The notes below the pieces were generated by a model, which saw only the letters and a list, made by a program, of their open reading frames with translations, had not been told where the DNA came from and did not search any database. This document shows, piece by piece, positions 7,298 to 10,495 of a DNA stretch of 64,000 nucleotides (the stretch's first letter is position 1; every line of letters begins with the position of its first letter). The position numbers were made by a program, and so were the translations under genes. The stretch spans positions 288,001-352,000 of the forward strand of contig CM000429.1 in the NCBI GenBank assembly GCA_000165345.1, given 5' to 3'.

Positions 7298-10200
7298 TTA
7301 ACACAAGGCAAAGAATGACTCCAATTTTTGTCCCTGGTCTACACCGATACAATTTTGTGAGGGATAAATACTCTTCAAGTAGTGATGTAGCCTGCTTGCA
7401 ATCCCATCTATATCTTTAACTCCTAAATCAGTTTTGAATATTTGTGATAGACTCAAAATCTGCTGAGGATTCAACATCTGTAAAATCGTCTCCTTTAAAG
7501 TACTAAAACTCCTCCTTATTCTGCCAAAGTAGAAATTCCCTACTATCTTCTCTATTGTACTTCTCCTTACTGCTTTACTTGCTCTAAGAAGAGAGTTATT
7601 ATGATAATATGTTCCCCAATCAGACTTTTCAGTATCTATTCCTGAAAATGATTTTCTTAGTACATCAAGCTCTGGATCATATTTAAAGTGATTAAAAGCT
7701 GTTAATAACAAATTATGTAATGAATTCAATACTACTGATAGCTTGTAAGTGTCTTGCTTTATATTTGAAAGATATTTCTTGATCCTTTTTCTTAAGGCTT
7801 TGTGTGTTGTATGCTTCATCCTATAGAACCTCTGATATCCACCTTTTCTTACCTTTGGAAGTAAATTTATAGCAAACTCATTCAATGAAATAATTATCAG
7901 CATTTGTCTAACTGCCTTCTTTAGAGAATGTGACAACATTTCGTATCCTGTTATTCTGATATCTACATGTTGAATTTGAAATATCAAGTCAGAAAATAGC
8001 TTTAGCATCTCAAACTGTCTTGAACCTCTAATCTTACATTGACATAGTGCAAAACTTGAGAAATCCCGTCCTATCAATACAAAATTGGTCTTACCTGATT
8101 TAAAGAAAGGAAGACTTTCTTTTTCAATTTGTTTATTTTCATCCATTTTTGCCATTCCTTCTTTTGACTCCTTAATCATTGATAATTCTTCCTCCAATTC
8201 GTTCTTATGTTTCTCCAAATCTGCCTTTATTAATGAATTTAGCTCTTTTAAGTTCTCTATTGTTATTGGAAAGTCTTCTTTCAACATTTGAGCTGGAAAT
8301 TTATAATGTTCATTCACCATCTTGGCTGTATGTTTTGTATATCTTTTTTTCATATATCTACTAATTACTTTTGAATTTAGAAAAACAAAATCTCCATTTG
8401 TTAAGATTTTTAGTTCATTTGTCTCCAATTTTGCTGCTGCTGTCTGGATATTTCTTAACTCTGGCCTAAGCTCCACATTCACATTATCTAATGTCGATGT
8501 ATATGTATAAAATGCCTTTCTTAATAATCGTCTTGCTCCTTTAAGCTTTCTTCTTTTCTTACTAAAGTGATACCAATGCATTAAAGAAGAAAAACAGTTA
8601 TTTCCCACTTCCGAAACAAAATGACCATACTTGCTACCTTTCAAGTCCCTTCCTAATTCTCTGAATTCGTGTAATAGCTGAGATTGAGATACCTTTTGTA
8701 AGTTTTGGTTCATTTGAGTTATTGCTTTTTGGTTTGCAATCTTATTAAATGCTGATCCAAATAATGTTGAATGATCCTTAATCTTTTCACAAATATTTGT
8801 AGTTTCTCTAATATAATAGTTCATTGTATCAAAGTAGTTAATTAAACATGATCTATCTGTATCTACAAATACCTGCTCGAGATTCATCTTATTATCTGTT
8901 GAATCTTTATTTTTATATATTTGAGCGTTTCCAGGGATTATGCTTGGTAGAGATGAATTAACTACAAGAGGAATTAATAATCTATTTATTGTTATAAACC
9001 TCCTATTGTTATAATTCGCATCATCAAGTTCTGAGTTGAGCCTTGAACATATTTTTGAAGCTAAATTAGTTCTTCTAACACTTAAAATGGTACTAAGATT
9101 CTTAACTTGATTCCCAATAGAACCAAAAGACCTTTCAATACTTGCCAATTTACTATTTAATACCAAATTCTTTGTTGTTGGACATGTATTAATAAGCCAA
9201 GCATTAAACTTTGTATCTAACTTATTATTCAAAAAAAATTGACCAATTAAATCTAAAAGTGTAGTTGAAATATCCTGATCCATTTCATATTCAGATAGTC
9301 CCTGACTAGAAAGTACTTTCTTGTCACTTTCAACCATGCAAAGTTGAGAATTAGTATCAGCAGCTTTACGGGAATATTCATATAATTTGGAAGTCTGCAT
9401 ACCAAGTATTACATTCTTTCTATCAACAAAGATCAAGTTAACAGCTTTTAAATTCTCAGAAATTTCTTTAGTCTTTTTAGGATCTTCATCTGGTAAGTTC
9501 AAGAACTCATTATAGTCTGTACAGAATTGTTTCAAAGAATCAGTATAAAGCTTTATTTCAGTCAAAATGATAAGCTTCTCGTAGCTTTTTGATTCAAAAT
9601 AATGATCAATTTCCTCCCTAATTTTGTTAACACCAAGAATAATATCATCACAAACACCTTTCAAAGGAGAAATTTTATTTCTAAACCATCGACTAGCATC
9701 TTCATTTTCTCCAATTCCCCAGTTTTTATTCATTAAATCAAGAAAGGTTCTCAATGGACCCAAAATAGCCATAAATGATATTCCAGAATTAAAATCCATA
9801 TAATGCTCTAATAAATTACCAATATTAAATATGTGGAATATGAAAGCTTCTGGATTTAATGTATTATACATTTTAATTTGATTTTCTTTATCTATATTAT
9901 AAAGCTGCTTGTTCTTAATAGTATTCAAAACATCAGTAATCTGACCAATTCTGGCTGTCATATTAATATCATAATCTGAATTTTTATGCTTTTGAATTTC
10001 ATAGAGTATTTGGTCATTGATAAAGGTAGTAAAATCCTCAATAGCCGATTCACAGTTAATTCCATGATTAGTCTGGATTAGACAATAAATAACCTGCGAT
10101 AATTGTTCATCAAATGGCTCCATTTCATTAAAAAGCTCATCACCATCAAAATTCTCACCATTTATAACTCTATATATTGGGCTTAAGAGGAATAATATAA

Positions 10201-10495
10201 TTAATGCACCCTCATTTCTATGTCGTATTTGGATCTTGTCATATATTGATAGCCAGACCAAGGAAAGCGACTCAAATGGTGAAATCACCGGAAATTGTGC
10301 GGAAAGTTGCAACATATTATCAGAAAATACATAGAAATCGGCTTTTGAGCGTTTTCTATCAATATTATTAAGATCTTCCACTCTCATTGTACTTCTATAT
10401 GGGTCTTTTTGCTCTGCTTTCTGGTCACCAGTCGCATATTGCAACAAGGCCACCAATATCAAGCATGATATCTGAATTCCCCATATTATATTCAT
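7298..10495 (-). CDS. large secreted hypothetical protein (1065 aa) with N-terminal signal peptide
   Basis: ATG at 10495. The N-terminus MNIIWGIQISCLILVALLQYATGDQ is a classical signal peptide (hydrophobic core plus polar cleavage region). The rest is mixed coiled-coil and globular with no recognisable family. Confidence 0.65.
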   Translation of the reverse strand: MNIIWGIQISCLILVALLQYATGDQKAEQKDPYRSTMRVEDLNNIDRKRSKADFYVFSDNMLQLSAQFPVISPFESLSLVWLSIYDKIQIRHRNEGALIILFLLSPIYRVINGENFDGDELFNEMEPFDEQLSQVIYCLIQTNHGINCESAIEDFTTFINDQILYEIQKHKNSDYDINMTARIGQITDVLNTIKNKQLYNIDKENQIKMYNTLNPEAFIFHIFNIGNLLEHYMDFNSGISFMAILGPLRTFLDLMNKNWGIGENEDASRWFRNKISPLKGVCDDIILGVNKIREEIDHYFESKSYEKLIILTEIKLYTDSLKQFCTDYNEFLNLPDEDPKKTKEISENLKAVNLIFVDRKNVILGMQTSKLYEYSRKAADTNSQLCMVESDKKVLSSQGLSEYEMDQDISTTLLDLIGQFFLNNKLDTKFNAWLINTCPTTKNLVLNSKLASIERSFGSIGNQVKNLSTILSVRRTNLASKICSRLNSELDDANYNNRRFITINRLLIPLVVNSSLPSIIPGNAQIYKNKDSTDNKMNLEQVFVDTDRSCLINYFDTMNYYIRETTNICEKIKDHSTLFGSAFNKIANQKAITQMNQNLQKVSQSQLLHEFRELGRDLKGSKYGHFVSEVGNNCFSSLMHWYHFSKKRRKLKGARRLLRKAFYTYTSTLDNVNVELRPELRNIQTAAAKLETNELKILTNGDFVFLNSKVISRYMKKRYTKHTAKMVNEHYKFPAQMLKEDFPITIENLKELNSLIKADLEKHKNELEEELSMIKESKEGMAKMDENKQIEKESLPFFKSGKTNFVLIGRDFSSFALCQCKIRGSRQFEMLKLFSDLIFQIQHVDIRITGYEMLSHSLKKAVRQMLIIISLNEFAINLLPKVRKGGYQRFYRMKHTTHKALRKRIKKYLSNIKQDTYKLSVVLNSLHNLLLTAFNHFKYDPELDVLRKSFSGIDTEKSDWGTYYHNNSLLRASKAVRRSTIEKIVGNFYFGRIRRSFSTLKETILQMLNPQQILSLSQIFKTDLGVKDIDGIASRLHHYLKSIYPSQNCIGVDQGQKLESFFALC

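Follow-up and report, generated by a model that had tools for sequence, protein, structure and literature searches.

The orphan gene cgd1_1230 of Cryptosporidium parvum encodes a predicted soluble secretory-pathway protein that is specific to the genus and strongly constrained

Cryptosporidium ranks among the leading causes of childhood diarrhoea, and its interface with the host cell is a unique structure built from secreted proteins, most of which are lineage-specific orphans. Genus-specific secretory cargo described so far includes DG3 (cgd1_590), DG8 (cgd8_5300), SG4 (cgd6_3920) and ROP5 (cgd1_950), which possess a signal peptide, have no recognisable domains and are restricted to Cryptosporidium; the protein considered here, cgd1_1230, is like them in these features, and no sequence similarity to them is claimed. 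A further comparison is with RON5, a member of the AMA1-RON2/4/5/8 complex of Toxoplasma and Plasmodium. RON5 is in general a large, soluble and mostly helical protein that begins with a signal sequence and lacks known domains, and to that extent resembles cgd1_1230. However, there is no detectable sequence relation between the two, and the AMA1/RON2/RON4/RON5 complex is reported absent from Cryptosporidium, leaving such a protein with neither its partners nor the junction itself (PMC3299665; PMC9250747). At the level of transcription, the relevant system is the AP2_1 (GCATGCA) regulon, whose regulator cgd2_3490 is the ortholog of Plasmodium PF14_0633, or AP2-Sp. The published consensus BGCATGCAH describes the type of site bound by this ApiAP2 protein, and is over-represented upstream of approximately 1,034 C. 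parvum genes, glycolytic genes included, which belong to 55 expression clusters mixed in function (PMC3734150).

We analysed a 64-kb stretch of DNA (the window), and all coordinates given below are positions within it. The gene was taken from a list of its open reading frames, its start being the first ATG that follows a stop.

7298..10495, minus strand: complete, intronless coding sequence of cgd1_1230, 1065 aa, with the stop codon at 7298-7300

The product has a mass of 123.7 kDa and a pI of 9.0, and is 100% identical to EAK88461.1 of C. parvum Iowa II along its entire length. The gene identifier was set by four recognisable neighbours, namely cgd1_1220 (an AGC kinase with a C-terminal extension), cgd1_1240 (Sec14), cgd1_1270 (PPPDE/PUB) and cgd1_1280 (KH), and the description of cgd1_1230 in a published supplement agrees with the annotation of this reading frame. 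Another identifier, cgd1_640, is described identically and its gene index would be plausible; it was dropped, as both the neighbours and the supplement description point to cgd1_1230. The database annotation, "predicted secreted protein, signal peptide", is long-standing. Hence, cgd1_1230 is an ordinary orphan secretory protein that was annotated already, one more among the many of its kind, and it stands out only modestly. What we add is the invariance of its cysteines, its bipartite architecture and a level of constraint corresponding to a dN/dS of about 0.09. Neither the gene nor its accessions are mentioned in the main texts of the searchable literature, where we also found no report of tagging, and cgd1_1230 is not among the entries of the further published supplements that we searched.

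10427..10495, minus strand: signal peptide, residues 1-23, MNIIWGIQISCLILVALLQYATG followed by DQ, from KD19, the -3/-1 rule and orthologs

Residues 3-21 (KD19 = 1.98), which contain the core ISCLILVALL, form the only strongly hydrophobic stretch in the protein, and predicted cleavage after G23 (A-T-G, then D) satisfies the -3/-1 rule. The hydrophobic core is kept in seven of seven orthologs despite drift of the sequence around it; the n-region is without positive charge in C. parvum and carries Lys or Arg in the orthologs of other species. The signal-peptide call is thus a composite of hydrophobicity, the -3/-1 rule, conservation and database annotation. There is no second TM-like segment in the C. 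parvum protein, the next KD19 window reaching 1.39 against a TM-like mark of 1.6; the best other windows of the orthologs lie at 1.44-1.73, and the sole one above the mark, and that slightly, is at residue 501 in C. canis. At the C-terminus (...LESFFALC) there is neither HDEL/KDEL nor a long hydrophobic GPI-like tail. The 15 cysteines (1.4%) are dispersed over the whole chain and constitute the most conserved residue type in the ortholog alignment, 11 of the 14 in the mature protein being invariant against a background of 30.9% (hypergeometric p = 3e-4), a preference which would fit disulfides in a secretory protein. All features of a classical Sec-type signal-peptide protein, that is, a tripartite signal, soluble cargo and conserved cysteines, are present as far as prediction goes, and they support the view of cgd1_1230 as a soluble protein of the secretory pathway that is confined to Cryptosporidium. 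An earlier reading made from the sequence alone had arrived at much the same picture, proposing a 1065-aa signal-peptide protein with no further TM segment, cysteines scattered through its body and no recognisable domain or similarity, as a candidate for the secretory pathway. Each of these points is borne out: the signal peptide and cysteines are conserved, no anchor or retention signal was seen, and the orthology search that it called for returned Cryptosporidium sequences only, with neither loss of support for the signal peptide nor a clear homolog of known function.

A profile HMM run against 1.84 billion representative proteins (E<=1e-3) gave no matches outside Cryptosporidium, but only two clusters, both from that genus, and nothing was added at E<=10 by word-indexed searches whose queries were the profile and the divergent member from C. 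andersoni. Pfam recognised nothing at E<=1, and at E<=10 no family was common to more than two of the seven members; NCBIfam gave no match, nor did sequence and profile searches of the PDB. Within the genus, full-length orthologs occur throughout and in conserved synteny, including in gastric C. andersoni at 39% identity. The order giant ORF, Sec14, cgd1_1230, kinase, 562-aa ORF, 307-aa ORF is shared by C. andersoni, chipmunk genotype I and C. ubiquitum. The gene has stayed in place on the chromosome on both sides of the deepest divergence within Cryptosporidium.

cgd1_1230 is genuine as a gene, and purifying selection on it is strong. Across the whole gene, dN/dS is 0.088 against chipmunk genotype I and 0.093 against C. 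ubiquitum, where the adjacent genes for the kinase and Sec14 give 0.10; by region, the value for cgd1_1230 falls from 0.09-0.15 in the N-terminal half to 0.06 at residues 601-800 and 0.03 at residues 801-1065. This gradient coincides with a division of the mature protein into two parts.

8696..10426, minus strand: N-terminal half of the mature protein, residues 24-600, acidic and faster-evolving
7301..8695, minus strand: C-terminal conserved core, residues 601-1065, basic and rich in invariant columns

The N-terminal half (net charge -12, pI 5.3) is predicted to be helical, and invariant columns make up 10-26% of each 50-residue block, except for 42% at a conserved island (residues 51-100). 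The C-terminal half, also helical by prediction, has a net charge of +33 and a pI of 9.8, and is invariant at 44-66% of columns in most blocks. It includes runs of the KKRRK/RKR type, the invariant basic and aromatic blocks KKRRKLKGARRLLRK, GGYQRFY..HKALRKR and FYFGRIRR, invariant cysteines in a CxC at 818/820 and at C1049, and an invariant end, FF(A/V)LC-COOH. Self-comparison found no internal repeats in the protein and no paralogs within the window. AlphaFold2 models were unreliable, both for the full-length protein (six sequences, pLDDT 34.8) and for the C-terminal core (seven sequences including C. andersoni, pLDDT 39.4), and Foldseek comparison of these unreliable models with the PDB returned noise only (best E 0.88, probability 0.07, TM 0.09).

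[quoted passage not shown] Although cgd1_1230 was recovered beside many proteins of the cargo type described above, its 10 PSMs lie below the authors' cutoff of >30 PSMs and it is absent from the orthogonal GFP-DG8-C pull-down, a second bait design (PMC13241007). These anti-DG8 peptides are the only published experimental data that we found for cgd1_1230, and they leave the apical-organelle role, which the sequence-only reading had offered beside a secreted one, no more than a candidate. In an expression clustering published in 2013, the gene falls in a five-gene cluster with RNA-binding and HhH proteins, apart from known secretory genes.

We propose that cgd1_1230 is cargo of a secretory organelle, released to the vacuole or interface, with the basic C-terminal half as its working module, a reading to which we give about an even chance of being right. 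The protein would be imported co-translationally into the ER, where disulfides would form, and be packed as lumenal cargo in a secretory organelle of the zoite, whether dense granule, small granule or rhoptry; its release, during or after invasion, would be to the parasitophorous vacuole or to the interface of host and parasite. At that site, the basic helical residues 601-1065 would probably dock on acidic membranes or on other secreted interface proteins, to judge from charge and conservation alone, while the acidic, variable N-terminal half might serve as a spacer or regulatory part. Counting against this role are the weakness of the pull-down signal, the lack of known secretory genes in the expression cluster, and the KKRRK-type basic C-terminal half, which would also suit a nucleic-acid-binding protein.

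The same observations can be read differently. If cgd1_1230 were a resident lumenal factor of organelle biogenesis, sorting or packaging that stays inside the parasite, then its housekeeping-like constraint (dN/dS 0.09, and 0.03 C-terminally) and genus-wide synteny would suit machinery better than an effector, and neither its separation from known secreted genes in the 2013 data nor sub-threshold support from the interface pull-down would be surprising. However, the protein lacks a membrane anchor and any known retention signal, HDEL/KDEL included, enrichment with antiserum to the interface protein DG8 was about 20-fold, and conserved, truly secreted interface proteins do occur in Cryptosporidium, such that we consider this possible, if rather unlikely. 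The basic C-terminal half and the company of RNA-binding and HhH proteins in the expression cluster would also suit a cytosolic or nuclear basic protein with a non-functional signal peptide, present in the pull-down as background, of which the anti-DG8 list has an obvious share; the uncharged n-region of C. parvum points the same way. Yet the hydrophobic N-terminus is retained in all seven species while the sequence drifts, the cysteines are preferentially conserved and the n-regions of other species do carry Lys or Arg, all of which makes this very unlikely. A secreted structural protein of another stage (sexual, of an oocyst or sporocyst-like wall, or of a residual or crystalloid body) would likewise have a signal peptide and conserved cysteines, as wall and matrix proteins do, and in C. 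parvum both class II COWP genes and clusters with a 72-h peak have AP2_1 motifs in their upstream regions (PMC3734150). But cysteine accounts for just 1.4% of residues, with no Cys-rich repeats, unlike in COWPs, and the peptides came from infected HCT-8 cultures prepared for a study of the early interface; we judge this reading improbable.

More doubtful still are the readings that would make the protein more remarkable. A signal peptide, restriction to the genus and the lack of known domains are also what would be expected of a fast-evolving effector of host interaction or host range, akin to the subtelomeric secreted families. With a dN/dS of 0.09, on a par with (and not above) that of its housekeeping neighbours, the kinase and Sec14, cgd1_1230 is not a fast-evolving effector; besides, it is single-copy, has no paralog in the window and no repeats, and occupies an internal chromosomal position in perfectly conserved synteny. 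We disfavour this reading and give it next to no credence; the pattern of constraint points to a core component, structural or of some machinery, rather than to an effector of host range or immune evasion. A different possibility is raised by names in UniRef, where the C. ubiquitum ortholog cubi_00119 is called 'Rhoptry neck protein 5' and that of C. meleagridis 'WSN domain'. Were cgd1_1230 an extremely diverged RON5 ortholog and remnant of the moving-junction RON complex, Cryptosporidium would keep part of a rhoptry-neck junction machinery that is believed lost, and such an ortholog might be, like cgd1_1230, large and soluble, with a signal peptide and a mostly helical predicted structure. 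Against this, the profile HMM gave Cryptosporidium sequences only, searches at E<=10 found nothing else and the PDB gave no match; no sequence or profile search reproduced the RON5 label. Nor did any of the seven members match WSN (Pfam, E<=10), and the sister orthologs are either named otherwise, as with that equally unreproducible label, or unnamed. Such inconsistency suggests automatic naming, and neither the 'RON5' nor the 'WSN' name should be trusted without structural evidence. We think it extremely unlikely that cgd1_1230 is a RON5 ortholog, and just as unlikely that it is a RON5 descendant, unrecognisable in sequence, that has been re-used for the epicellular attachment zone. To return to the proposal of released secretory-organelle cargo, the position fixed genus-wide, the C-terminal dN/dS of 0.03 and the weak DG8 signal together make cgd1_1230 a reasonable, although not an urgent, candidate for a core component of the interface or of a secretory organelle.

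The region upstream of the gene contains two nested features.

10554..10562, minus strand: AP2_1-type element GGCATGCAT, 66 nt upstream of the ATG, an exact fit to BGCATGCAH
10551..10576, minus strand: conserved upstream block GGAGACACAGACGTGGCATGCATCCA surrounding the AP2_1 site, a phylogenetic footprint

The promoter box that the sequence-only reading had noted is real and conserved, but its sequence at -66 is that given here, which shares seven of eight bases with TGCATGCA. The surrounding block is near-identical in three species and partially matched in C. andersoni; chipmunk genotype I and C. ubiquitum each have, at -69, an AP2_1 site identical to that of C. parvum, and the site is degenerate in C. 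andersoni. With a proximal putative site that fits the consensus exactly and is conserved across species, cgd1_1230 resembles members of the AP2_1 regulon, although membership does not imply a role in invasion or secretion. Because the motif is spread over approximately 1,034 genes of mixed function, it is uninformative on a secretory or apical role, and we dismissed it as a secretory marker in favour of a generic element. Two-thirds of the GCATGC cores in the window are located within ORFs.

The sequence-only reading had also grouped cgd1_1230 with two further large secretory proteins of the window, a 'giant repeat protein' and a 785-aa protein. Signal peptides are indeed present in all three. 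In the giant ORF, of 2461 aa, a hydrophobic signal follows Met19, but the name is unsupported, since there are no repeats in it at either the DNA or the protein level; the 785-aa ORF at 53767-56124 begins with a clean signal peptide.

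The window has a GC content of about 30% and is densely filled by long intronless ORFs. Among these, the 1065-aa ORF that the sequence-only reading had described as lacking a recognisable domain is real; it lies on the minus strand at 7298..10495, its start codon being the first ATG downstream of a stop, and encodes a protein of 123.7 kDa with a pI of 9.0 and 15 Cys (1.4%). Along its entire length the protein matches C. parvum Iowa II EAK88461.1 (CPATCC_000296) at 100% identity; the database name of that entry is 'hypothetical / predicted secreted protein, signal peptide'. Since it is placed between the kinase cgd1_1220 and the Sec14 gene cgd1_1240, the ORF is identified as cgd1_1230, the description of which in the 2013 supplement repeats the UniRef name word for word. 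The identity first suspected, cgd1_640, was ruled out by four neighbours:

4817-7093, AGC-type kinase extended at its C-terminus by about 290 aa, cgd1_1220
11107-12510, CRAL/TRIO (Sec14) ORF, cgd1_1240
21998-23179, PPPDE and PUB ORF, cgd1_1270
23537-24919, KH protein ORF, cgd1_1280

Hence, cgd1_1230 is already in databases as a predicted secreted protein, and the observation is correct but not new. Neither Pfam (E<=1) nor NCBIfam returned a match, and sequence and profile searches of PDB gave nothing meaningful. AlphaFold2 models of the full-length protein and the C-terminal core had pLDDT values of 34.8 and 39.4 respectively, both being predicted as nearly all helix and permitting no further reading, and an exploratory Foldseek comparison with PDB returned noise only.

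The proposed N-terminal signal peptide without any further TM segment was borne out. Residues 3-21 (numbered on the precursor) form the sole strongly hydrophobic stretch in a Kyte-Doolittle scan (1.98) and are followed by A-T-G|D, satisfying the -3/-1 rule, while the second-best window (1.39) lies below TM-like values. The hydrophobic core is kept in 7/7 orthologs although individual residues drift, which is how signal peptides behave. Among the residue classes, Cys shows the highest conservation across the orthologs, 11 of the 14 in the mature protein being invariant compared to 30.9% of all positions (hypergeometric p = 3e-4), and this would be compatible with structural disulfides made in the ER. 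The chain falls into two halves, an acidic and variable one (residues 24-600; net -12, pI 5.3; 10-26% invariant columns, except for an island at 51-100) and a very basic and conserved one (residues 601-1065; net +33, pI 9.8; 44-66% invariant columns in most blocks). In the basic half, basic/aromatic blocks and a C-terminal FF(A/V)LC are invariant, and a CxC is found at 818/820. There are only four N-glycosylation sequons, no internal repeats, and no paralog within the window.

Close searches recovered full-length orthologs with >90% identity in C. hominis, C. meleagridis and C. tyzzeri; identity was 89% in chipmunk genotype I, 85% in C. ubiquitum, 78% in C. canis and one further assembly, and 67% in C. 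felis. A profile HMM run against 1.84 billion representative proteins added solely C. andersoni cand_031880 (1052 aa, 39% identity, E = 6e-264) and found no homolog outside Cryptosporidium; two more searches at E<=10 made no additions. The gene order giant ORF, Sec14, target, kinase, 562 aa, 307 aa is common to C. andersoni, chipmunk genotype I and C. ubiquitum, and this, with the ortholog spread, indicates a single-copy positional ortholog older than the gastric/intestinal split of the genus. Pairwise dN/dS, estimated by the Nei-Gojobori method, was 0.088 against chipmunk genotype I and 0.093 against C. ubiquitum, compared to about 0.10 for the neighbouring kinase and Sec14 genes, and fell to 0.03 across residues 801-1065. 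Judged on these ratios, cgd1_1230 is under housekeeping-like purifying selection, unlike a diversifying effector.

Direct evidence on the protein is confined to two supplements, the main texts of the literature searched making no mention of it. In the first, cgd1_1230 belongs to expression cluster 71 (membership 0.82), the four other members of which are unrelated, one being an RNA-binding protein (Oberstaller et al. 2013 supplement). In the second, it is listed on the 'DG8 pull down' sheet of S1 Table, from a comparison of anti-DG8 and pre-immune serum in infected HCT-8 cells, DG8 being a host-parasite interface protein (cgd8_5300); 7 unique peptides and 10 PSMs were recovered (log2FC 4.31, p = 0.026) (PMC13241007). 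These peptides prove the protein to be made, and they hint at association with secreted interface proteins. The 10 PSMs fall short of the authors' filter (>30 PSMs), the protein is missing from the independent GFP-DG8-C pull-down, and the anti-DG8 list contains obvious background proteins (PMC13241007).

Its signal peptide is conserved, its Cys are preferentially conserved, it lacks any anchor or retention signal, and it has long been annotated as a predicted secreted protein; on these grounds cgd1_1230 very probably enters the secretory pathway, as predicted from sequence. The proposed secreted or apical-organelle factor is thus supported in part, its apical-organelle side being putative. The likeliest fuller account, which we consider an even call, makes the protein soluble cargo that a secretory organelle of the zoite would discharge into the vacuole or at the host-parasite interface. 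There the basic C-terminal domain, which is under constraint, might dock to membranes or partner proteins, judging purely by its charge and conservation. Among the alternatives, which follow in order of confidence, a resident lumenal or biogenesis factor is unlikely yet the strongest, and a structural protein of another life stage is improbable. That the protein is a basic one that is not secreted is a little more doubtful still.

A divergent rhoptry neck protein 5 (RON5) takes its appeal from UniRef, where the C. ubiquitum ortholog is called 'Rhoptry neck protein 5'; the C. meleagridis ortholog is called 'Domain of unknown function WSN domain-containing protein'. The two names contradict each other and were reproduced by no search run: profile, E<=10 and PDB searches found no match to RON5 or any other non-Cryptosporidium protein, and no WSN match, or Pfam match common to the orthologs, appeared at E<=10. 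Both are probably automatic names. As searches gave only Cryptosporidium proteins, and the literature describes Cryptosporidium as lacking the AMA1/RON2/RON4/RON5 complex (PMC3299665; PMC9250747), a very remote relationship is unlikely. A fast-evolving effector is disfavoured most of all, the dN/dS speaking against it. We regard cgd1_1230 as one more genus-specific orphan secretory protein, notable mainly for its strong constraint and its weak link to the DG8 complex.

The promoter box TGCATGCA noted earlier is only partly present: a site, GGCATGCAT, lies at -66, with 7/8 of the palindrome bases. It fits BGCATGCAH exactly, which is C. parvum Motif 1 (AP2_1), the site type bound by the ApiAP2 protein cgd2_3490 (PMC3734150). 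Two other species have the site at -69 with its flanks conserved, and C. andersoni has a degenerate version; this conservation makes a functional site probable. AP2_1 is also in excess in the upstream regions of about 1,034 genes, which fall into 55 expression clusters with enrichment for glycolysis, phosphorylation and related functions (PMC3734150), and so many genes of mixed function make the element uninformative on secretion. Across the whole window GCATGCA has 41 strand-hits against 4.4 expected, about a 9-fold excess, without intergenic enrichment of GCATGC (19/28 cores fall in ORFs of 250 aa or longer, p = 0.23), and only 3/23 window genes have a GCATGC-type site within 400 nt upstream. 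A perfect TGCATGCA palindrome occurs at 7150-7157, in the 204-nt spacer on which cgd1_1220 and the target converge 3'-3'. C. ubiquitum shares this palindrome (+152 from the stop), chipmunk genotype I and C. andersoni lack it, and it might serve as an antisense or 3' promoter.

Elsewhere in the window, the 2461-aa ORF at 12971-20356 (+), cgd1_1250 by gene order, has no Pfam match and probably starts at Met19 (13025), a predicted hydrophobic signal then following. Its description as a giant repeat protein found no support, there being neither DNA tandem repeats nor protein self-similarity; synteny holds in 4/4 species examined, and the C. andersoni protein is 48.5% identical. At 21039-21136 there is a tandem repeat of 12 nt, GACTTCTTTTCT (5.4 copies, 94% matches), inside the 301-aa ORF at 20441-21346 (-), cgd1_1260 by gene order. 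The 785-aa signal-peptide protein at 53767-56124 (-) was confirmed, with a clean N-terminal signal (MNSWVILFIFLLLSIIIASEA) and no second hydrophobic window; it is Leu/Lys/Ser-rich, with 9 Cys and no Pfam match. A 1023-aa ORF at 34976-38047 (-), also without a Pfam match, converges with a SNF2 helicase ORF at 32556-34979 (+), their 3' ends overlapping by 4 nt. The window further encodes a TPR and GT41 glycosyltransferase (OGT/SPINDLY-like) at 26390-29488 (-), an ABC half-transporter at 38299-40623 and a DHHC palmitoyltransferase at 42735-43775.
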